Shown in pieces: positions 3,979 through 44,121 of a stretch of DNA of 64,000 nt. Position 1 is the first letter of the stretch, and every line of letters starts with the position of its first letter. Under the pieces are notes generated by a model. That model was given only the letters and a program-made list of their open reading frames with translations. It ran no database searches and was not told the origin of the DNA. The DNA comes from Candidatus Entotheonellaceae bacterium (GTDB taxonomy: Bacteria; Tectomicrobia; Entotheonellia; Entotheonellales; Entotheonellaceae), in assembly GCA_965238075.1 (NCBI GenBank), contig OZ250173.1, positions 2,400,001 through 2,464,000 on the forward strand, read 5' to 3'. Both the position numbers and the translations under genes were made by a program.

Positions 3979-5316
3979 TCATCCGACATTGCTCACCACC
4001 TCGCCGATGGCCAAGCCGTCGCTCAGCCTGTGCAAGCGCACCATCGCCATCCGGTTTGACAGGTCCTCTGACGCTTCGACGCCCACCTTGAGGTAATTGT
4101 CACTGAAGCCGGTATGCAGGCCCGATTTCTCAAGACGCTCGAACAACACCCGCACCGTGCTGCCCATGGAGCCGCGATAAAATGCCGCCTTCTTGCGCGT
4201 GCTGAGTTCCCGCAGAGTGCGGCTGCGCGCCTGAATGTCGGCGGGCGGCAGGTGATCCGTATACCGTTGGGCGTAGGTGTGCGGCCGCTCGGAGTATGAA
4301 AAGACGTGGCAATAGGCCAGCGGCAGGTCGGCCAGCAGCAGGCGGGTGTTGGCGAATGCCGCCTCATCCTCGCCGGGGAAGCCCACCATCGCGTCCGTGC
4401 CCAGGCAGACGTCCGGCACGCGCGCCGCGACCCGCTGGATGAACGACGTGAAGTCGGCCCGTGTGTAACGCCGCTTCATGCGTTGCAGCACGTCGTCGTC
4501 GCCGCTCTGCAGGGGTACGTGCAGGTAGGGGCACAGCTTGGACGAGGTTGCCATCCAATCGACCAGCCCCTCGGGGATGGTGGTCGGCTCGATGGAACTG
4601 ATGCGGATACGGTCGAGGCCGTCGATGTCTTCGAGTGCCCGGATAACCTGGAGCAGGTCGTAGCCGTCGCTTGTGTACGTGCCGATGTTGACGCCGGTGA
4701 GCACGATCTCCCGGTGCCCTCTCGCGACCAGGCCGCGGGCCTCCTGGAGGATGTCCGGGAACTTGCGGCTGCGGGCGCCGCCGCGGCTGAAGGGGATGAT
4801 GCAAAAGGCGCAGGCGAAGTTGCAACCGTCCTGGATTTTCAGGTTGGCCCGCGTGTGATCGCTGTAATTGCCAATCACGTCCAGGCTGAAATCATCGCGG
4901 GCGATTTTCGTGGTGTGAACGACGCGCGGCGCGACTTCCTTTTGCGGCGTGTCGACGAGGTCTACCACCTGCATTTTGTGGGCTGTACCGACGATCAGGT
5001 CGAGCCCGTCGATGCCCCGCAGCGCCTCCTTGCCCACTTGCGCGTAGCATCCGGTGACGACTACGTAGGCGTTCGGCGAGCGGCGCAGCACGGTGCGCAC
5101 CGCTTGGCGGCACTTGGCCTCGGCGCTTTCGGTGACCGAGCAGGTATTGATGACGCACACATCGGTATCGGCGCCGTAATTGACGATGCGGTAGCCCCGG
5201 TTGGCGAACGTCGCGCTGATCGACGCCGTCTCGGCCTGATTGAGGCGGCAGCCCAAGGTGTGGAACGACGCTCGCATGCCGTTCTCGGGGCTCACCTGCC
5301 CATCCGTTGTACGCAT
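3979..5316 (-). CDS. mtaB: tRNA t6A37 methylthiotransferase (radical SAM)
   Basis: TLGCRLNQAE, INTCSVT, VTGCYAQ, KIQDGCNFACAFC, RISSIEP, C-terminal TRAM-like domain. Confidence 0.9.
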   Translation of the reverse strand: MRTTDGQVSPENGMRASFHTLGCRLNQAETASISATFANRGYRIVNYGADTDVCVINTCSVTESAEAKCRQAVRTVLRRSPNAYVVVTGCYAQVGKEALRGIDGLDLIVGTAHKMQVVDLVDTPQKEVAPRVVHTTKIARDDFSLDVIGNYSDHTRANLKIQDGCNFACAFCIIPFSRGGARSRKFPDILQEARGLVARGHREIVLTGVNIGTYTSDGYDLLQVIRALEDIDGLDRIRISSIEPTTIPEGLVDWMATSSKLCPYLHVPLQSGDDDVLQRMKRRYTRADFTSFIQRVAARVPDVCLGTDAMVGFPGEDEAAFANTRLLLADLPLAYCHVFSYSERPHTYAQRYTDHLPPADIQARSRTLRELSTRKKAAFYRGSMGSTVRVLFERLEKSGLHTGFSDNYLKVGVEASEDLSNRMAMVRLHRLSDGLAIGEVVSNVG

Positions 5317-5437
5317 TGCTTTCTCCTGAAGCCGTCCGGCCGCCAAGGCGCGTCGGCTTGCTCGCCATCTATGGGTGCGCTACGCTTCTCACGTTACCGA
5401 ACAGGACTCTGGAATTTCAACCAAGCGAGGGATCATT

Positions 5438-6349
5438 GTGCGGCATGCCACACCCCGGCAAGTGCGCGTGCGCGTTCCGGCTACGACGGCCAACCTGGGT
5501 TGCGGGTTCGATATCCTGGGGCTCGCACTGAAAATCTACAATACCTTTACGTTGACTGTGACGCCTGAGCCGGGTTGGCGTGTCACGCTGCCGGCCGGGG
5601 TGGACCTGCCGTCTGATGGCGATAACTTGGTATTCAAGGCCGCCCACGGCGTGTTTACCAAGGTCGGCGACAAGCCGGCGGGGTTGCATTTGTCGTTGGA
5701 CATGGACATTCCGCTGGCGCGCGGTCTTGGCAGCAGTTCAGCCGCCATTGTCGGCGGCCTGCTCGCCGCCAACGTGCTTGCCGGCAACCCGCTGAAACCC
5801 GAGGCGCTGCTTGCCATGGCCGTCGAGATGGAGGGGCATCCCGATAACGTCACGCCGGCGCTGATGGGCGGTCTGACCCTTTCCTACGCCGTCGACGGGT
5901 GCCATGCATTCCTGCCTCTGGATTTTCCGTCCGACTTGAGCCTGATCGTGGCCATCCCCGACTTTGAACTGCCAACTGCCAAGGCGCGAGCCGTGCTTCC
6001 CCGGCAGATCAGCCGGGCCGACGCGGTGTTTAATTGCAGCCGCACCGCCCTGCTCGTGGCGACGCTTCAGATGAGGCGCTACGACCTTCTTTCCGCCGCC
6101 ATGGACGATCGCCTGCATCAACCCTTTCGCGCCGCCCTCGTGCCCGGTATGGAAGCCGCCATGGCCGCCGGCTATCGCGCCAAGGCGTTGGGTGTGGTCC
6201 TCAGTGGCGCCGGGCCTACCTTGGTTGCCTTGACCCGTTCCGACCCGCAGGCCGTTGCCGCGGCGATCAGCGATGCCTTCGCGGCGCACCATGTTACGTG
6301 CCGGACCCAACTCGTACAAGCCGACGTCGAAGGCGCCGTGGTCTGGTGA
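5438..6349 (+). CDS. thrB: Homoserine kinase
   Basis: VPATTANLGCGFD, IPLARGLGSSSAA (GHMP motif), EGHPDN, DRLHQP, SGAGPT. Confidence 0.95.
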   Translation: MRHATPRQVRVRVPATTANLGCGFDILGLALKIYNTFTLTVTPEPGWRVTLPAGVDLPSDGDNLVFKAAHGVFTKVGDKPAGLHLSLDMDIPLARGLGSSSAAIVGGLLAANVLAGNPLKPEALLAMAVEMEGHPDNVTPALMGGLTLSYAVDGCHAFLPLDFPSDLSLIVAIPDFELPTAKARAVLPRQISRADAVFNCSRTALLVATLQMRRYDLLSAAMDDRLHQPFRAALVPGMEAAMAAGYRAKALGVVLSGAGPTLVALTRSDPQAVAAAISDAFAAHHVTCRTQLVQADVEGAVVW

Positions 6350-6565
6350 ACGGGGTCATCATCCGGCGCCGGGCTGCCTTGGCGAAGGCGGGATTGTACC
6401 ACAAGGGCCTGTCGCCGTTGTTGCAGTCCGCGTTCACGGCACTTCGGGGAGGCTTGACAAAGACGGGCGGCTTATGAGAGAAGGGCTGACGCGGATGCAA
6501 ACGCCGCTACGGAGTGTGGTAGTGCCGTTTAAGGGTTAGTTGCCATACGGAGAGAGGAGCACGTC

Positions 6566-7684
6566 ATGCAAGTAGAATGGCTGAAGCGATATATGACCCA
6601 GCAGCACCAGGGTTGCCAACATGAACACGCTGCGGAGGCAGAGGACGCCGCGACCGAGCAAGACGACAGCGGCGTGTCGCGCCGTGATTTCGTCAAGACC
6701 GGCGTTGCCGCCGGCATGGCTGCCGGCATGGCTGCCGGGCACGTGATCGGTAATCCCGACAAGGCCGAAGCGGCGGCGCACTGGGATTTCCCCCTGGGCG
6801 CTCAGTGGTGGCCGTCCGAATGGGGCCCGGAGGATGAGGCCGGCGCTTCCAACCGCATCACGCCGAGCAAAGTGCTGGAGGCCGCCAGTCTGATTCGCAA
6901 GGGCAAGGTTTACCGCCTTGGCATGGTACTGGAGGCTGGGGTTCCCCTGTTTGGCGCGCGGCACGTTTCGATCACCATTCCGGGCGGCCCCACCGGCGGC
7001 CCGTTTGGCGCCCAGCAACTCATGTACAACGATGAGATGTTCAGCGGCGAGATCGGCCAGGTCGGGTCGCAGTTTGACGGCCTCGGCCACATTGGCGCTA
7101 AGGTGGGCGACACGATCCGCTACTACAACGGCTTCACGCAGGACCAGGTGGGCGGCTCTTACGGGCTGCAAAAGTTGGGCGTTCACAACTGCAAGCCGTT
7201 TTTCACGCGCGGCATCCTGCTTGACGTGGCGTCCATGAAGGGTGAAGAACGGCTGCCGATCGGCTACGTCATCACCATGAACGATGTCGCGGACACGCTC
7301 AGCAAGCAGGGTATTAACGAACCCGGCGAGGGTGACGCGGTCATGTTCCGCACCGGCCACATCAGTTTGTGGATGAAGGACAACGAAGAGTACAACAAGG
7401 GCTGCCCGGGTCCCGGCGAGACGGTGGCCAGGTGGCTCGCCGAGCGCAAAATCGCCTGCGTCGGCGGTGACAGTTGGCCGGTCGAGGCCGTGCCGGGCGA
7501 GGTGGAGAGCCAGCCGTTCGCGTGCCACGTGATCTGGATCCCCATGAACGGCATCTACATTATCGAGAACCAGTACCTGGATGACTTGGCGAACGACGGC
7601 GTTTACGAGTTTGCCTGGTCGTTCAGCCCGTGGCCGGTCAAGGGCGGTACCGGGGCGCCAGGCATCTCCGTGGCCATTGCCTAA
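6566..7684 (+). CDS. Tat-exported cyclase (kynurenine formamidase-like) family metallohydrolase
   Basis: SRRDFVK twin-arginine signal; WGPEDEAGASN, GSQFDGLGH, FRTG, GGDSW, IIEN, KGGTGAP. Confidence 0.85.
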   Translation: MQVEWLKRYMTQQHQGCQHEHAAEAEDAATEQDDSGVSRRDFVKTGVAAGMAAGMAAGHVIGNPDKAEAAAHWDFPLGAQWWPSEWGPEDEAGASNRITPSKVLEAASLIRKGKVYRLGMVLEAGVPLFGARHVSITIPGGPTGGPFGAQQLMYNDEMFSGEIGQVGSQFDGLGHIGAKVGDTIRYYNGFTQDQVGGSYGLQKLGVHNCKPFFTRGILLDVASMKGEERLPIGYVITMNDVADTLSKQGINEPGEGDAVMFRTGHISLWMKDNEEYNKGCPGPGETVARWLAERKIACVGGDSWPVEAVPGEVESQPFACHVIWIPMNGIYIIENQYLDDLANDGVYEFAWSFSPWPVKGGTGAPGISVAIA

Positions 7685-37168: not shown

Positions 37169-38272
37169 ATGCGCGCAAAGGCCGCCATTCTCTACGAAGC
37201 TGGTACGCCCTTACGGTTTGAAGAAGTCGAAGTCGCCCCGCCGCAAGCCGGTGAGGTGCTGGTGCGGTTGTACGCCGGTGGCGTGTGCCACAGCGACCTG
37301 CACGTCATGAAGGGCGATCTGCTGATGCCCATGCCGATCATCCTCGGGCACGAGGGGTCGGGCGTGATCGAGGACGTCGGCGCGGGCGTCAAATCGGTGC
37401 AGCCCGGCGACCACGTCATTCCCATCTGGCGGGTTTCCTGCGGCACGTGCGAGTACTGCACCGGCGGGCGACCGGCGCTGTGCGACGTGGGCACCGAGAT
37501 GCGCGTCACCGGGCTGATGGAAGACGGCACGACGCGCTTTTCCGCGGCGGGCCAGCCGGTGCGGCACTTCGCGGGAGTGTCGAGTTTTTCCGAGTTGTCC
37601 ACCATGCCAGAAGCCGCGGTGCTCAAGATTCCCAAGGATTTTCCGCTGGATAAGGCGGCATTGCTGGGTTGTGGCGTGATAACCGGGGTCGGGGCCGTGG
37701 CGAACGGCGCGCGAGTCAAGATGGGCAGCACAGTGGCGGTATTCGGCTGCGGCGGCATCGGGCTGAACGCCGTGCAGGGCGCCCGCATCGTCGGGGCCCG
37801 GCGTATCATCGCGGTCGACGTGGCCGAGCAGAAGCTGGAATACGCCCGCACCATGGGCGCGACGCACACCGTTAACGCTGCCGACGTGGACGCCGTCGCT
37901 GCCATCAAGGATCTCACCGACGGGCGCGGCGTGGATTATGCGTTCGAGGCCATCGGCATCACCAAAACGATCGAGCAAGCGTACGCGGCTACGAAGAAAA
38001 TGGGCACCTGTGTGGTCATCGGTGTCACCCGCGCCGATGTGCGGGTCAGCATCAACGCCAACGAGATGGTGTATGCCGAGAAGACACTGATGGGCTCGCT
38101 GTACGGCTCGGCGCGGCCCAAGATCGATCTGCTGCACCTGATGGAGATGTACCGCTCGGGCGACCTGTTGCTGGATGAGCTGCTCACCCGCACCTGGCCG
38201 CTGGCGGAAATCAACGACGCCTACGCGGCGCTCGAACGCGGCGAGGTGGCGCGCAGCCTGGTGCTGGCATGA
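37169..38272 (+). CDS. Zn-dependent alcohol dehydrogenase (class III-like MDR)
   Basis: GVCHSD, GHEG, CGTCEYC...C, LLGCGVITG, GCGGIG. Confidence 0.95.
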   Translation: MRAKAAILYEAGTPLRFEEVEVAPPQAGEVLVRLYAGGVCHSDLHVMKGDLLMPMPIILGHEGSGVIEDVGAGVKSVQPGDHVIPIWRVSCGTCEYCTGGRPALCDVGTEMRVTGLMEDGTTRFSAAGQPVRHFAGVSSFSELSTMPEAAVLKIPKDFPLDKAALLGCGVITGVGAVANGARVKMGSTVAVFGCGGIGLNAVQGARIVGARRIIAVDVAEQKLEYARTMGATHTVNAADVDAVAAIKDLTDGRGVDYAFEAIGITKTIEQAYAATKKMGTCVVIGVTRADVRVSINANEMVYAEKTLMGSLYGSARPKIDLLHLMEMYRSGDLLLDELLTRTWPLAEINDAYAALERGEVARSLVLA

Positions 38273-39978
38273 ACCGCGCCACCATAGCCCGCCGAGGAAA
38301 CCCATCTGCCATGCCCGCCGAGATGCGACAAACGATGCGCCAACGCCTGCTGGCTGAACGCGGCGCGGTGGTGAAGGAAGCGGGCGCCGTGCGCCTGCGC
38401 TTCGCGTTGGCGTATCCGCACACCTACCATATCGGCATGTCAAACCTGGGCCTGCAGACGATCTACCGGCTGGTCAACCAGCGCCCGGACACCCTGTGCG
38501 AGCGTGTCTTTCTGCCTGATCCCGCCGACATCAGCCGCCACGGCTATGCCAACGTACCGTTGGTTTCCGTCGAATCGCAGCGGCCCGTCCGTGATTTTCA
38601 CCTGGTTGGTTTTTCGGTGTCGTACGAGAACGATTACCTGCATCTGCTGCACATGCTGGCGATGCTCCGCATTCCGCTGCTGGCCGCCGAGCGCGATGAG
38701 CGCCACCCACTGATCCTCCTCGGCGGCGCCGTCACCTACCTCAACCCGGAGCCCTTGGCGGATTTCGTCGATCTGATGATCATCGGAGATGGCGAGGACG
38801 CGCTCAACGAGTACCTGGACTTGGCGCACGACACCCTTGGCCAGCCGCGCCGCGCCCACCTGCGCCAGGCGGCGGAAATTCCCGGTGTCTACGTTCCGGC
38901 CCTGCACGACCGGTCCGGGGACGTCAGCCCCATACCGCCGCGCAAAATCGCCGATCTGGCCCAATGGCCGGCGTATTCCACCGTTCTCACCGACGAGACC
39001 GAATTCAGCGGCTCGCTGCTTATCGAGATTACGCGCGGATGCCCCTTCAAGTGCCGATTCTGCACGGTTGGCTACGTCTATCCCAAGTTTCGCCAACTGC
39101 CGGGTGAAATGGTTCTGGACATCGTGACCGCCCAGCAGCGGCGCGACCGCGATAACGGCCTGGCACCGGTCGGAAAGGTGGGTTTGATCAGTTCCGCCAC
39201 CGGTGATTACCGCGCCCTGCCTATGGTGGCGCAGGGGCTGGTGGACATGGGCGTAGGTATCGGCATCTCGTCACTGCGCATGGACCGCATGCCCGACGTG
39301 CTGATTGATTGCATGGTGCGCAGCGGCGTCCGCTCCTGCACCGTCGCCCCCGAGGCGGGTTCCGAGCGTCTGCGGCAGCTCATCCGCAAGGAAATGAGCG
39401 AGGCGGTCATTCTCGAGGGCGTGGAACGCCTGCTGGCCCACGGCGTGCGCGACCTCAAGCTCTATTCCATGATCGGCCTGCCCACCGAAACCGACGATGA
39501 CGTGCAGGAATTGCTGGCCCTGGTCTTGAAGATCTGGGCGCTCATGAAAAGCTACGGCCGTCCCCGCGGCGCCTTGGGAACCCTGACCCTGAGCGTCAAT
39601 CCGTTCATCCCCAAACCCGCCACGCCCCTGCAATGGTGCGCCATGGCCCCCCAGCGCGACGTCAAGGCGAAACTTCACACCCTGCGCCAGGCCCTGCGCC
39701 GTGAATCCTCCATCCGCCTCCAGCACGGCAGTCTCAAAGACGATTACCTCGAAGCCATCCTCGCCCGCGGCGACCGCCAGCTCGGCGCCTTCCTCCTCGA
39801 AACCCATCGTCAACGCGGCAACTGGCCCCGCGCCGCCAAGGTCCTCGGCTTCGACGCCATCGACTGGGTCTGCCAACCGTTGTCTCGTGACGCCATCCTG
39901 CCCTGGGATTTTCTGGAAACCGACCGCCAACGCCAGCGCCTGCACCGTGAGCACGACCGTGCCCTGGCCGTGCCGTAG
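38269..39978 (+). CDS. Radical SAM protein with B12-binding-like N-terminus
   Basis: YPHTYHIGMSNLG, CERVF, RGCPFKCRFC, APEAGSERLR, MIGLPTET, FIPKPATP. Confidence 0.88.
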   Translation: MNRATIARRGNPSAMPAEMRQTMRQRLLAERGAVVKEAGAVRLRFALAYPHTYHIGMSNLGLQTIYRLVNQRPDTLCERVFLPDPADISRHGYANVPLVSVESQRPVRDFHLVGFSVSYENDYLHLLHMLAMLRIPLLAAERDERHPLILLGGAVTYLNPEPLADFVDLMIIGDGEDALNEYLDLAHDTLGQPRRAHLRQAAEIPGVYVPALHDRSGDVSPIPPRKIADLAQWPAYSTVLTDETEFSGSLLIEITRGCPFKCRFCTVGYVYPKFRQLPGEMVLDIVTAQQRRDRDNGLAPVGKVGLISSATGDYRALPMVAQGLVDMGVGIGISSLRMDRMPDVLIDCMVRSGVRSCTVAPEAGSERLRQLIRKEMSEAVILEGVERLLAHGVRDLKLYSMIGLPTETDDDVQELLALVLKIWALMKSYGRPRGALGTLTLSVNPFIPKPATPLQWCAMAPQRDVKAKLHTLRQALRRESSIRLQHGSLKDDYLEAILARGDRQLGAFLLETHRQRGNWPRAAKVLGFDAIDWVCQPLSRDAILPWDFLETDRQRQRLHREHDRALAVP

Positions 39979-40062
39979 CAGGAGGGAGGCTGTAGCACAA
40001 GCTCCCTTACGTGGGTGCAATAAGGCTGCAAGCTGTCGTCGGACGGCTTCGGAGGGCTAAGG

Positions 40063-40845
40063 ATGAAGCACAGCGTGCTGAAGCCGCCCAAGTCGCTCGC
40101 GGCCACGATCGCATTCCTCACCTGTTTGACGATCGCGCATGTGCTCTCGGCGCCAAGCGCTGTCGGCACCGAATCGCTCCAGGCGGCGCGTAGCGCACAC
40201 GCCGAGGGCCGATTTACCGAAGCCGCCGAACTCGCCGTGGCGGTCGGCACTTCCGAAGGATTTGCGCTGGCAGCCGGGGCGCTGGCGATCCATAGCTACT
40301 ACATCGCCGAAGACGACGCCAAGCCGGCTTTGCTTGAGCGGGCCATGCGGTTGGCACAGGAAGCGGTCCGCCTCGACACCAACAATCCCGAGGCCCATCT
40401 CCAATCAGCACACGCCATGGGCCGATACGCGCAGACCATCGGATTGTTGAAAGCCTTCAGTCAAGGCTATGCGGGAAGGGCGCGAGAGGCAATCGACAAT
40501 GCCCTCCGGCTCGATCCGCACAGGGTGGCCGCGAACCTGATGTTGGCCATGTGGCATAAGGACATCGTCGCCAGCGGATTGGCGGCCAGATTGGCTTATG
40601 GGTCGACCAAAGAGAAGGCCGTCGAACACTACGAGCAGGCCCTTGAGATTGCGGCCGGCGCACCCGATGAGAAGGTGGTGCTCGTTGAATACGCCGAGTG
40701 CCTGTTGCGCTTGTATCGCAGCCGGCACCACAAGCGGGCACGTGAGTTGCTCGTGCGGGCGATCGGAGTACCGTCGAAGGACGCGTTCGAGCGTATTCTC
40801 CATCAAAGGGCCGTCGAACAGTTGGCGGCTCTGGAAGCGCCTTAA
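40063..40845 (+). CDS. Secreted TPR-like protein
   Basis: Signal peptide; helical repeats (AVRLDTNNPEAH, ALRLDP, HYEQALE). Confidence 0.7.
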   Translation: MKHSVLKPPKSLAATIAFLTCLTIAHVLSAPSAVGTESLQAARSAHAEGRFTEAAELAVAVGTSEGFALAAGALAIHSYYIAEDDAKPALLERAMRLAQEAVRLDTNNPEAHLQSAHAMGRYAQTIGLLKAFSQGYAGRAREAIDNALRLDPHRVAANLMLAMWHKDIVASGLAARLAYGSTKEKAVEHYEQALEIAAGAPDEKVVLVEYAECLLRLYRSRHHKRARELLVRAIGVPSKDAFERILHQRAVEQLAALEAP

Positions 40846-40919
40846 ATCAGGAGCCTTGGATCGTTCAAACCATGTGTTGCGTTGCTGTCAGTGTTCCATT
40901 AAGTTGCTTTGGCGTCTCG

Positions 40920-41012
40920 CATGAATGCCCGCCGGTCCAGCATAAGATCGCCATCAGGCTCGTAGACGTTTTCGGCAATGACACCGAGACAGTCGCGGAG
41001 GTGACAGCATGA
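40920..41012 (+). pseudogene. Remnant 3' end of a site-specific DNA methyltransferase gene
   Basis: Reads HECPPVQHKIAIRLVDVFGNDTETVAEVTA-stop, matching the KIAVKVVDIFGNDT C-terminal motif I recall from Mod-like MTases; its TGA overlaps the next ATG (ATGA). Confidence 0.6.
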
Positions 41013-41902
41013 AATTTGACCTGCCGAAAAGAATCCGACACAGCAAGGATGGTTTCGAGGTCTTGGCGTGTCTCCATGCTCAGACTGAGCGCTGTTTTAT
41101 GGATGATGTCGAGATTGACATGGCATCAACGGATTGGTTTGACGCAGATATGTGCGCGGTACTTGGGGGCATTCTGTACCGCTTAGGGGGCAGGTCGAAC
41201 CTGAACACTGTGGCTCTCACAAATATCTGCTCAGAGGTAGAAACAATTCTGGCGAGAAACGGCTTTCTCAGTCACTACGGCCGGGAAAAGCTCCCCGACC
41301 GTTGGGGGACAACCATTTCATACAAGCGGTTCGATGTTGAAGACAGCAGCTATTTTGCCCGGTACGTTGAAGACGAGTTTATCCAGCAGCGTGAAATGCG
41401 TGAAATGCTGGACATGTCGCCGGGCCTCCAGAAAAAATTCCACGAGGCCATTTTCGAGATATTCAGCAATGCTGTGTCACATTCCCATACTGAGATGGGG
41501 ATCTTCAGTTGTGGACAATTCTATCCTGCGAGACACCAGCTTAATTTTACGGTGGCGGATATGGGGGTCGGCATGCGCCGCAAGATACAGGACCATTTAG
41601 GGCGTAACCTGTCACCGGAGGAGGCAATCGTCTGGGCAACGGAGCGCAACCACACGACCAGGAAAGGCGGTATTCCCGGGGGTTTGGGGCTGAAGTTGCT
41701 TCGCGAATTCATTGACCGGAATGATGACGGCTGTCTTCAGATCGTATCCGACGCCGGATATTGGCGCCGCGAAAAACACGGCACCTGTACCGAACGATTG
41801 AGTTATCCGTTCCCGGGTACGGTAGTGAATGTGGAGATCAATACTGCAGACCAGAACACCTACGGCCTTTCTTCCGAGGCCACGACCAACGATATTTTTT
41901 GA
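41009..41902 (+). CDS. GHKL/HATPase ATP-binding protein (RsbW-like Ser kinase?) with STAS-like N-terminus
   Basis: N-box EIFSNAVSHS, G1 VADMGVG, G2 GGLGL, G3 PGTVV; no His-acceptor helix; N-terminal IDMASTDWFDAD. Confidence 0.8.
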   Translation: MKFDLPKRIRHSKDGFEVLACLHAQTERCFMDDVEIDMASTDWFDADMCAVLGGILYRLGGRSNLNTVALTNICSEVETILARNGFLSHYGREKLPDRWGTTISYKRFDVEDSSYFARYVEDEFIQQREMREMLDMSPGLQKKFHEAIFEIFSNAVSHSHTEMGIFSCGQFYPARHQLNFTVADMGVGMRRKIQDHLGRNLSPEEAIVWATERNHTTRKGGIPGGLGLKLLREFIDRNDDGCLQIVSDAGYWRREKHGTCTERLSYPFPGTVVNVEINTADQNTYGLSSEATTNDIF

Positions 41903-41913
41903 GATGCATCCCC

Positions 41914-42279
41914 ATGGAAAAGAGCCTTGTGATATCCATATTTCAGGTTGTCGGCAGTCCCTTGTGTGTCGCGTCTGACGATGGGCAGAAGGTATACGAC
42001 CGTCTAGCCGCCGCCTTGCACCAGGGACGATGCGTCTCGCTTTCATTTCGCAACGTCTCCGTGCTGACCTCAGCGTTTCTCAACGCGGCGGTCGGGCAGT
42101 TGTACGGAAAGTTCGACGAGCACCAAATTCGCGAATTATTGCAAGTGGAAGACATGCAGCCTGATGATGTGGCGCTGTTGGAACGCGTCGTAAAGACGGC
42201 TAAACAGTTCTTTCGAGACCCGGAGAGATTCAGCAACGTGGTGAAGGAGGTCCTGGAGGAGGAAGACGATGACGCATGA
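41914..42279 (+). CDS. STAS-like (DUF4325-type) protein
   Basis: ASDDGQKVY, VSLSFRNVSVLTSAFLNAAVGQLY. Confidence 0.8.
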   Translation: MEKSLVISIFQVVGSPLCVASDDGQKVYDRLAAALHQGRCVSLSFRNVSVLTSAFLNAAVGQLYGKFDEHQIRELLQVEDMQPDDVALLERVVKTAKQFFRDPERFSNVVKEVLEEEDDDA

Positions 42280-42769
42280 TGTCTCACATGTCGGGGACTA
42301 TCATTTCACCACCAACGACGCGTTATTTCTGGACGCCAACATCTGGCTATGTATGTATGGCTCAACGAGTGTAGGTAGGAATAACAGAAAAGAAACCTAC
42401 CTCTCAGCGTTTCGTCGCATTCTGGAAGCTAAGAGCCGCATCTATATTAACGTCCTCGTCGTCTCGGAGATTATCAACGTCTGGGCCAGAATCTCTTACC
42501 GGGATTGGGAATATTGGTCGCCTCAAAATTTCAAGGCATATCGTAGCAGTGATGCTTTCAAATCCGTTGCTTCGGATATTGCCGCCGACATCAAACGGAT
42601 CCTGAGTTATTGTTCACGAATCGAAAGCGGCTTTGAAACGGCAGAAATAGATACCTTGATTGACGAATACAAGGAAACTGGTTCCGACTTCAATGATCAA
42701 ATCATCCGAGAGTTGTGTAAAAGTAGAGACTTGAGGCTGATAACGGACGATGGTGACTTCTATGGTTAG
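42269..42769 (+). CDS. PIN-domain nuclease; TAG at 42767 probably premature (frame continues to 42811)
   Basis: Acidic tetrad FLDANIW, VVSEIIN, DFND, ITDDGDF; after the TAG the frame reads GISILTANRRLLR-stop. Confidence 0.8.
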   Translation: MTHDVSHVGDYHFTTNDALFLDANIWLCMYGSTSVGRNNRKETYLSAFRRILEAKSRIYINVLVVSEIINVWARISYRDWEYWSPQNFKAYRSSDAFKSVASDIAADIKRILSYCSRIESGFETAEIDTLIDEYKETGSDFNDQIIRELCKSRDLRLITDDGDFYG

Positions 42770-42990
42770 GGTATATCCATCTTAACGGCCAACAGGCGTT
42801 TATTGCGCTGATCTCAAGGTATTCCTCCTTCGCCTTCCTTTTCTTCTCCACACGCGACCTTGCCCCGCGCTTCGCGAGCTTCCAACTGCTGGCGCCTCGG
42901 CATTGCCCACCACCGCACGGTTGCTTTGTTTTGAACGACTAGGGTAGTATGTAGCGCCGAATTGATAACCCATGCGAGGAGGGCTCAGGG

Positions 42991-44121
42991 GTGGCGGATA
43001 ACGTTTTTCAGGCGGCGATTGACATACTTGAAAGAGGCGAGCAGGCGGCGCTGTCGACGATCATCTCGTCGAAGGGGTCGTTGCCGATGAGCGAAAAGAG
43101 CAAAATGCTGGTGACGCCGGAAGGGAAAATTATCGGCACGGTCGGCGGCGGCTGTCTGGAAGCGGATGTGTGGACGGAAGCCCGCGAAGTGATGGAGGCG
43201 GGCAAGAGCCGCATCCAGAAATTCATCCTGACGGAGAAATACGCCGGCGAGAGCGGCCTCAATTGCGGCGGCGTGGTGGAAATCCTGACGGAGCCGTTGC
43301 CAGAGCGCGGCCAGGACGTGTTCCGCACCATTCTCGACCTCAAGGAATCCGGGCACCGCGGCACGTTGGCGACGATTCTCACCGACCACCCCGATTTCCC
43401 GGAGGGACGCCGCAAGCTCCTGCTCACCGACGATGGCAGCACGGTTGGTTCCCTGGGCAACGCTGACCTCGAAAGCTTCGTGGTGCAGCGCGGCCAGGAT
43501 GTGTTGCGGGGCGAAAACTTCGCCATCGAGTCCTACGCCGCCGCTTCCGGCGACACCCTGCAGATTTTTCTGGAACCCGTTCTCCCCACCCCGACCGTGT
43601 GGGTATTCGGCGGTGGACACGTGTCGTTCTTCCTGGTACGCGCCGCCAAGCTGGCCGGTTTCAGGGCCAAGGTGATTGATGACCGCCCGGCCTTCGCCAA
43701 CAAGGAGCGCTTCCCGGAAGCCGACGCCACGATCGTCATGGAATTCGACAAGGTCCGCGAGGCGTTCGATTTTGGCCACGACGATTACGTGGTCCTCGTG
43801 ACGCGCGGCCACCAGCACGACCAGCATATTCTGGAGCAGATTTACGACTGCGACGCCCGCTACCTCGGCATGATCGGCAGCAAGAGCAAGATCGCCAAAA
43901 TGTGGCAGCGCTTGGAGGCCAAGGGCATCGACAGTGGCTATCTCGACCGCGTACACGCACCGGTCGGCCTGAACATCGGCGCCGATTCGCCGGAGGAAAT
44001 CTGCATCAGCGTCATGGCCGAGATCATCCGCGAGCGGCGTATCGGCAAGGTGCAGGCTACCCGCCACAAACGCAGCCATGACGAGCGCCGCGAGGCCGTT
44101 GCGGAGGCTGCGGCGTCGTAG
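42991..44121 (+). CDS. xdhC: XdhC/CoxI-family Mo-cofactor chaperone
   Basis: [49 protein letters not shown]. Confidence 0.9.

Follow-up and report, generated by a model that had tools for sequence, protein, structure and literature searches.

The 64,000-nucleotide stretch analysed here, referred to below as the window, comes from Candidatus Entotheonellaceae bacterium (assembly GCA_965238075.1, contig OZ250173.1, positions 2,400,001 to 2,464,000) and carries, in a low-GC islet, three tightly packed genes that very probably constitute a vapKSC operon, a kinase-gated type II-like toxin-antitoxin (TA) and anti-phage module, in a copy that looks to be decaying. The vapKSC system was first described and tested by Chambers, Rani, Min, Villa and Corbett (EMBO J 2026;45:5079, PMC13373217; PDB 9z7o); what is said of it below draws on the main text and Dataset EV3 of that paper. 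It consists of VapK, a CapK-like protein with a STAS domain and a GHKL kinase domain, VapS, a STAS protein whose C-terminal part is short, and VapC, a PIN protein. An earlier note on this DNA had proposed a three-component TA or defence system in which a PIN RNase is gated by a GHKL kinase together with a STAS protein, and this matches the published module: the mechanism deduced from sequence alone is the one published and tested in 2026. The accompanying remark that no characterised example was known has been overtaken by that publication, and the locus should be filed as vapKSC and not counted as a new system. In the literature searched, the name vapKSC occurs only in Chambers et al., in two versions. 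Beyond the published work, we add here a TAG/CAG polymorphism in vapC, the nesting of vapKSC between mod and res genes, and a defence hotspot at the insertion site in the genus.

The three proteins and their published counterparts

The open reading frames (ORFs; Table 1) encode 297, 121 and 166 residues. An 11-nt gap (41903-41913) separates vapK from vapS, and vapS and vapC overlap by 11 nt (42269-42279), as the earlier note had it; the vapS ATG at 41914 sits within a longer ORF that starts with TTG (41761-42279). The AT-richness noted for the islet also holds, with a GC content of 0.46-0.54 over 40750-42999 against 0.59-0.67 in the flanks. The gene is present as a single copy in the 3.35-Mb genome. 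The end coordinate first given for the triad, 42811, has to be abandoned, since it reads through an in-frame TAG and the encoded ORF ends at 42769.

VapK carries a HATPase_c domain by Pfam (E 3.7e-6; 27.8 bits, cut-off 26.4) and no HisKA domain by the same search, and its N box (E150, N154), G1 (D184, G186) and G2 (G224-G227) motifs are intact. In an AlphaFold2 model made from 56 sequences (predicted local distance difference test score, pLDDT, 94.7), the best structural match to residues 99-282 is SpoIIAB (1l0o_A; Z 10.6, root-mean-square deviation (rmsd) 3.0, 136 of 141 residues aligned); RsbW, UsfX and SiaB also match, at Z 6.7-7.2 (RsbW 7.1-7.2), and Foldseek was concordant. The protein is thus a GHKL ATPase of SpoIIAB-like fold that lacks the acceptor His, as first described. 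Its STAS-like N-terminus was likewise confirmed. When residues 1-100 were modelled alone (pLDDT 86) and compared by VIA-align with 48,161 chains, all 21 chains at Z of at least 8 proved to be STAS domains or STAS-bearing proteins, with MlaB (Z 10.6) and RsbV (6m36_B; Z 10.3, rmsd 2.2, 88 residues aligned) at the top. The assignment follows from this search, because Foldseek with the same model gave nothing at E ≤ 0.001 (best 0.034, for RsbS/RsbV). The STAS fold begins at residue 1, without an N-terminal helix-turn-helix (HTH) domain. Against PDB chains, the sole hit of a VapK sequence profile was a histidine-kinase domain from a plant (E 0.004); neither a VapK nor a CapK of known structure came up. 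Trp43 is invariant and Phe44 at least 90% conserved among 46 sequences, and both are candidates only for the conserved aromatic residue of a putative site for single-stranded DNA, represented by F54 in Escherichia VapK.

VapS matches the Pfam family DUF4325, 'STAS-like' (E 5.6e-16), and has one strong match among PDB sequences, 9z7o_A, 'Escherichia VapS' (E 1.8e-16 over residues 11-117). Its 121 residues comprise a STAS domain, a helix some 35 residues long and an acidic tail; no HTH family is found by Pfam, and there is no winged HTH (wHTH). The LTSAF motif, placed by the earlier note where SpoIIAA has its phospho-Ser loop, in a stand-alone STAS protein, occupies residues 51-55, and its Ser53 aligns with position 66 of chain 9z7o_A, which would be the published acceptor Ser48 if the 134-residue chain has 18 extra N-terminal residues relative to a native protein of 116. 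Relatives were collected by a scan with VapK over one genome per species, the best 80 of 122 loci being kept, and in these the acceptor column is Ser in 79 of 80 and Thr in the other. A profile-profile comparison of VapS with the N-terminal domain of VapK detected no relation (probability 0.13), and a by-eye alignment that put an Asp/Ala of VapK at the acceptor-Ser position was dropped after this result.

For VapK and VapS together, complex prediction gave a median ipSAE of 0.52 (0.53, 0.36, 0.52), the best of three controls scoring 0.00, with contact agreement of at least 85% and a partner pLDDT of at least 79. In the tool's calibration, 116 of 157 solved complexes passed the mark, as did 2 of 215 mismatches; at ipSAE of 0.60 or less, only 18 of the 157 complexes passed, but both mismatches did.

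VapC is recognised as a PIN domain by Pfam (E 2.5e-8), and a profile of its family matches 9z7o_C, 'Escherichia VapC' (E 2.5e-10), with Asp22 aligned to the catalytic Asp28. Escherichia VapC is toxic, and its D28A mutation removes the toxicity. Escherichia VapS neutralises VapC, in a 2:2 complex (VapS2VapC2) solved by crystallography; neutralisation is lost on removing the C-terminal part of VapS or on the phosphomimetic S48E mutation, the latter also ending co-purification. The operon of Escherichia sp. E4736 gives about 2-log protection against one phage, Bas42, and this depends on VapC D28, VapS S48 and VapK F54 (PMC13373217). Two of our related loci are named as vapKSC in Dataset EV3, those of Nitrosomonas nitrosa Nm90 (L002), with a VapK 65% identical to that of the window, and of Zetaproteobacteria CG_4_9_14_3_um_filter_49_83 (L077).

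How does the window's module compare with other systems? With VapKSC itself it shares the three adjacent co-oriented genes, the conserved acceptor Ser and the catalytic Asp; it differs in that its VapC is ended by a nonsense codon and in that its clade is often nested between Type III-like mod and res genes. CapK/CapS, as described in the main text of Chambers et al. (PMC13373217), likewise pairs a GHKL kinase having an internal STAS domain with a Ser-bearing STAS substrate, and its proposed trigger is single-stranded DNA (ssDNA). CapK, however, has an extra N-terminal HTH, and CapS bears a wHTH and represses transcription, whereas the window has neither and its output would be a bound toxin. 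The SpoIIAB-SpoIIAA and RsbW-RsbV pairs show the same kinase fold, STAS-fold substrate and Ser phosphorylation controlling partner binding, but the window's module has no sigma factor or PP2C phosphatase, its kinase has a STAS domain of its own, and it is the STAS protein that would sequester the effector. The partner switch first proposed can therefore be retained as control of a PIN protein by a kinase and a STAS protein, but not in the sense that the kinase holds the effector, nor with a phosphatase or sigma factor in the module. In VapBC, a type II TA system, a VapC-type PIN toxin also has its antitoxin encoded by the gene immediately before it, the two reading frames overlapping. The window's antitoxin, in contrast, is a DUF4325/STAS protein without a DNA-binding domain and has no VapB domain of the AbrB, RHH or PHD type, and in systems of its kind a third gene, the kinase, gives the release signal in place of antitoxin proteolysis. 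The pairing of PIN and DUF4325 genes was noted earlier for the PIN.4 subfamily, with no mechanism, by Matelska et al. (Nucleic Acids Res 2017, PMC5499597); the treatment of this subfamily there gives the same gene pairing and does not mention the kinase.

A premature stop in vapC and its variation among strains

The TAG at codon 167 costs VapC its last 14 residues, and with them the final conserved strand. Codon 167 is Gln in 41 of 76 relatives (column counts for the PIN protein leave out L035, L043 and L059 as cut or broken), and the 13 codons past the TAG still fit the family consensus, including Thr173 (conserved in 75 of 76) and Asn175 (74 of 76). The lost segment aligns with ordered residues of the crystallised VapC (9z7o). 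Among related PIN frames, 74 of 79 are single and full-length and none ends where that of the window does, which makes it 1 in 80 with the window included; the five non-standard frames are cut by a contig end (L035), carry an insert (L049, L058), lack the 5' part (L043) or are frameshifted (L059). The window's protein covers positions 1-163 of 178 of the VapC profile and is not a full-length VapC, a truncation that bears on the state of this copy and not on its ancestry.

All four acidic motifs reported for the PIN domain are nonetheless present, D22, E67, D140/D143 and D161/D163 lying upstream of the stop; D22, E67, D140, D143 and D161 are found in 76 of 76 relatives and D163 in 75. What the earlier description missed is that the protein bearing them is without its conserved C-terminal strand and is probably disabled. 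Departures from columns conserved in at least 95% of sequences also occur in the window's proteins, numbering two in VapC (D61N and G137T; at least two in 6 of 77 sequences), five in VapK (median 1; at least five in 3 of 77) and one in VapS.

Assembled contigs of four public runs (X5, X7, X11 and X16) were aligned to the region. Base 42767 is T in X5 and X7, as in the window, and C in X11 and X16, where codon 167 is CAG and VapC has 180 residues. This T/C split implies that the vapC stop is real, recent and strain-dependent, and that the sister strains with CAG, as assembled, retain a full-length VapC. X7, which has the vapC TAG, also has an extra C behind 42018 that frameshifts vapS after codon 35, as is expected if the toxin no longer needs neutralising; the same insertion is present in 3 of a depth of 20.5 in X11. 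Over 41990-42051 the X11 assembly is fragmented into several short contigs, the picture that a polymorphic site would give. The listed differences that separate X16 from the window number 2 synonymous and 9 non-synonymous in vapC (including the stop); for vapK the corresponding counts are 7 and 3, for vapS they are 2 and 3, and 13 further differences lie outside the list. Taken with the departures from conserved columns, these strain differences, read from contigs and small in number, suggest relaxed constraint and a disabled or weakened toxin. In the window's strain VapC is probably inactive or strongly weakened. The TAG and CAG alleles, occurring naturally in related strains, offer a ready pair for asking what the C-terminal strand contributes to toxicity.

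Further decaying copies are seen among the relatives. L060, L067 and L074 have a frameshifted vapK, and in L057 the N-terminal part of vapK is missing; decaying vapC copies are those of L043 and L059 described above. Together with the repeated occurrence of mod stubs, such remnants show the decay of toxic modules once their context is lost.

Table 1. Features of the vapKSC islet (coordinates are positions in the window)
Feature	Coordinates	Strand	Description
Low-GC islet, ~2.0 kb	40846..42869	.	Missing from same-genus genome G005; right edge between about 42870 and 42905
mod 3' remnant	40905..41006	+	Type III-like DNA methyltransferase, last ~34 codons; mod profile match and DNA alignment to G001/G003
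GGAGG, Shine-Dalgarno-like	40997..41001	+	7 nt before vapK start, inside mod remnant; read from sequence
vapK	41009..41902	+	N-terminal STAS (~1-95) and C-terminal GHKL Ser-kinase of anti-sigma-factor type (~99-282)
mod TGA stop	41010-41012	+	Overlaps vapK ATG
vapS	41914..42279	+	STAS/DUF4325 antitoxin with C-terminal helix and acidic tail; predicted phospho-acceptor Ser53, codon 42070-42072
vapC	42269..42769	+	PIN-domain toxin gene cut to 166 aa; relatives mostly 174-186 aa
Premature TAG, codon 167	42767..42769	+	Relatives mostly Gln; base 42767 T in window, C in related strains
Orphaned vapC 3' end	42770..42811	+	GISILTANRRLLR then TGA (42809-42811); in frame, fits family consensus

Nesting in restriction operons and the insertion site

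The 100 nt before vapK align to the mod 3' ends of two same-genus genomes, G001 and G003, and the mod remnant of Table 1 matches positions 707-740 of 741 (E 4.4e-7) of a mod profile built from 16 related loci. No res gene is found by profile in the window, which thus lacks intact flanking mod and res. The junction of mod stop and vapK start is NTGA in all 22 loci printed, and in these GGAGGT or GAGGT is kept at the position of the Shine-Dalgarno-like element. Among 37 loci with full flanks, the gene that ends at the vapK start encodes an N6_N4 methylase in 17, and a Type ISP enzyme in one more; on the downstream side, 11 have a ResIII protein as neighbour and 4 an AAA_15/AAA_21 ATPase. By profiles, 46 of the 79 loci with 300 nt or more upstream have mod sequence abutting vapK, and 31 of the 69 with 1,500 nt or more downstream have res there; 29 loci have both, and 9 have the ATPase. 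A C-terminal stub of mod only, as in the window, is seen in 14 loci with ample upstream DNA.

In the window's clade, then, vapKSC usually lies within a mod-vapKSC-res operon. On a quick, unrooted maximum-likelihood tree of 77 VapK sequences, mod-linked loci occur in both halves, and gain and loss of the linkage are indistinguishable; the mod-stub state takes 10 parsimony changes, and well-supported branches force at least three of these. No label was given to ten rows whose upstream flanks are short, and the four loci with a broken vapK (L057, L060, L067 and L074) are outside the tree. The end branch of the window's VapK is 0.51, against a median of 0.22.

The nesting of vapKSC in a Type III-like operon was not found described in the main text of Chambers et al. 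or in Dataset EV3. That main text contains neither 'Type III' nor 'methyltransferase', a statement that leaves aside the supplementary figures (PDF), which might bear on it. Dataset EV3 has no RM_type_III entry; it has 20 'DMS_other' entries, and words beginning with RM_type_I, a pattern that takes in RM_type_IIG as well, give 29 matches. With mod sequence fused to the vapK start in more than half of the related loci, and res behind vapC in many, vapKSC may be coupled to restriction, in which case the idea of coordination between restriction and abortive infection raised in that paper (PMC13373217) becomes testable with one operon. Tentatively, and with rather less than an even chance of being right, we suggest that in this clade vapKSC, instead of standing alone, serves a Type III-like restriction operon as its integral second layer, in which DNA ends and ssDNA arising when restriction attacks a phage, or fails against it, would fire VapK and lead to release of the VapC RNase; the gap between mod and res would be a slot open to other cassettes too, and the window's copy a relic whose first layer has been deleted and whose second is being disarmed. 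If true, this would be a hard-wired circuit of restriction followed by abortive infection.

In G001 the place of vapKSC between mod and res (L094:7512-9287) is taken by an AAA_15/AAA_21 ATPase (PADLOC NsnB, 5.2e-40; AriA-like) followed by a small ORF. The same ATPase stands behind vapKSC in nine related loci (L003, L011, L012, L053, L058, L059, L070, L072 and L078). It looks as though cassettes can be exchanged in the space between mod and res.

Comparison within the genus defines the islet itself. In G005 the two flanks are 95% identical to those of the window (query 3-2546 and 4606-6801 of window:38300-45100) and lie only about 40 nt apart, so that the islet is an insertion or deletion relative to G005, the extra DNA running from 40846 to about 42870-42905. 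The site is also empty in G004, with about 104 nt between the flanks. Other genomes have filled it differently: in G001 it holds a Type III restriction-modification (R-M) system (MTase_III 3.4e-105, REase_III 1.5e-19) with the AAA ATPase mentioned above between the two; in G003 the same R-M system is present, with a degraded vapKSC between a split mod and res; and in G002 an MmeI-like Type IIG enzyme (2.9e-302) stands beside the downstream flank. The corresponding loci, equivalent to window 39990-42990, are L094 (G001), L095 (G003), L098 (G002), L096 (G005) and L097 (G004). The genus thus has a variable defence hotspot here, bounded by the radical-SAM gene (38269-39978) on one side and the xdhC-like gene (42991-44121) on the other. 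A VapK protein query matched only two of 40 other genomes, namely G035 (41% identity) and the remnant in G003.

No integrase is found among the ORFs listed for L095, and no direct repeats were seen at the islet ends, by eye in the junction alignment only. The segment upstream of the xdhC-like gene (window 42898-43016) recurs in G003 as a copy of about 115 nt (G003:C8:16083-16195; 82% identical) by the radical-SAM flank, where the island has its other end, and G002 has a shorter copy beside the same flank; insertion of an island could have left such repeats. The 260-residue TPR-like gene at 40063-40845, immediately before the islet, is itself accessory: G005 has it, but the DNA match of G001-G004 stops at about 39990.

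All three genes are adjacent in 79 of the 80 related loci, the remaining one (L051) ending with its contig 33 nt after vapS, so that the conservation of the triad across genomes, which had been raised as a check, is borne out. Gene order is K-S-C in 76 loci and S-C-K in three (L056, L065 and L079), which come from Thermodesulfobacteriota and form one group on the VapK tree. Carriers occur in many phyla, and the VapK tree does not track taxonomy. A library of 1.84 billion proteins contains 1,717 cluster representatives related to VapK at E ≤ 0.001, of which 282 reach E ≤ 1e-30. The plasmid and phage sets seldom contain a VapK relative (1 of 72,556 and 3 of 50,697 records, respectively), and they give no sign of plasmids or phages as usual carriers.

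Mechanism, alternative readings and surroundings

By analogy with the Escherichia system, VapS would bind VapC one to one on a VapC dimer, through its STAS domain and C-terminal helix, and block the active site. Single-stranded DNA arising from DNA damage or phage infection is thought to switch on VapK, which would then phosphorylate Ser53 of VapS, a residue predicted to lie in the VapS-VapC interface; phosphorylated VapS would leave, and VapC would cleave RNA, so that growth stops. In the window Gln167 of VapC has become a stop through a C-to-T change, with loss of the final conserved strand, and of the mod and res genes that flank many relatives nothing is left but 34 codons of mod. With its restriction partners deleted and its toxin cut, the copy is probably being lost.

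Several points weigh against so reading the locus as a decaying vapKSC operon. Every functional claim made for it is carried over by homology from the Escherichia system, although identity to the Escherichia proteins is low and the VapC match needs a profile. In that system VapK was insoluble, and the phosphorylation of VapS and activation by ssDNA form a model drawn from mutant phenotypes and predictions (PMC13373217). The VapK-VapS complex predicted here, at ipSAE 0.52, is graded 'weak support' only. Since the four acidic residues survive in the shortened VapC, it may have some activity left. The strain differences were read from contigs, not raw reads, and the vapS frameshift of X7 may have arisen in assembly. 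None of the three proteins scored above threshold with PADLOC v2 (2023) or NCBIfam; the PADLOC check suggested earlier thus brought no recognition, as expected of a 2023 library that predates the description of the system in 2026. Finally, expression is uncertain, a promoter and terminator scan having given chance-level counts and no promoter-like site upstream of vapK, which implies that transcription may depend on the upstream gene.

Does the operon still work? It is rather unlikely, we believe, that it remains a functioning TA or defence system in which the 166-residue VapC is active, or the TAG partly read through, and truncation tunes toxicity. The intact vapK and vapS, with complete catalytic and acceptor motifs, would fit such a state, as would the position of all four PIN acidic residues before the stop and a vapC 3' remainder that is in frame and unchanged, although the last of these fits a very recent mutation equally well. 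The TAG allele has also not been rapidly purged: it occurs in assemblies of at least three studies, by contigs in X5 (study P2) and X7 (P3) and by word share alone in P1, which is possibly the source of the window itself. Yet the lost segment contains the almost invariant Thr173 and Asn175 and aligns with residues ordered in the crystal, not one of 79 related PIN frames ends at that place, and the antitoxin frameshift that accompanies the TAG in X7 would be lethal if the toxin were active. An improbable alternative makes the operon mainly an addiction cassette, acting by post-segregational killing to stabilise the R-M island that carried it, more than a phage sensor, and decaying after the loss of that island. 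The location of vapKSC between mod and res in many relatives, translationally coupled to mod, and the joint degradation of R-M genes and vapKSC in both the window's genome and G003 would agree with this, but the need for VapC D28, VapS S48 and VapK F54 in phage protection by the Escherichia operon (PMC13373217) points to a triggered response, and the roles of addiction and phage response are not exclusive.

Two further readings would give the kinase and the STAS protein another output. That they form a transcriptional switch of neighbouring genes, with the PIN protein as regulated cargo, is suggested by CapK/CapS, a sister family that regulates downstream operons (PMC13373217); this is highly improbable here, given that VapS has no wHTH and VapK no N-terminal HTH, and that the homologous VapS binds VapC directly in the crystal structure (9z7o). 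Hardly credible is a classical SpoIIAB/SpoIIAA or RsbW/RsbV switch acting on a sigma factor encoded elsewhere, with the PIN gene an unrelated neighbour. SpoIIAB is indeed the best match of the VapK kinase domain (Z 10.6), and the STAS substrate has a Ser at the acceptor place; but no sigma-factor or PP2C gene lies in or beside the islet, nor was one found in the PADLOC-model scan of 10 kb either side, the PIN gene goes with the other two in 79 of 80 loci, which span many phyla, and VapK has a STAS domain of its own, unlike SpoIIAB or RsbW.

The islet is bordered by genes for the TPR and radical-SAM proteins and XdhC. A PADLOC scan of 19 ORFs within about 10 kb gave generic matches only (sigma-54 activator-like AAA+, E1/MoeB-like and thymidylate-kinase-like), and in the window's genome the islet is not within a defence island. 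An Rfam scan of 40000-43600 found no RNA family. The metatranscriptomic runs X11 and X13-X15 contain 0.66-0.72 of the words, and X11 contigs span the stretch; such contigs from an RNA library do not prove transcription and were not used as evidence of it.

Some individual relatives have features of their own. L037 and L040 are two vapKSC copies on one contig, about 106 kb apart, each with a mod stub only, and a DUF4238 protein (Pfam 1.1e-23) is encoded upstream of one of them. In L008 and L009 the VapK sequences are near-identical (end branches 0.008 and 0.004), while the metagenome-assembled genomes are labelled Deltaproteobacteria and Thermodesulfovibrionia, pointing either to a very recent transfer or to a binning or labelling problem. 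Directly downstream of vapKSC in L046 (L046:7993-9168) lies a fused HTH_3 and Peptidase_M78 (ImmA/IrrE-like) gene, a domain pair that recalls the CapH and CapP regulators named in the main text of Chambers et al. (PMC13373217).

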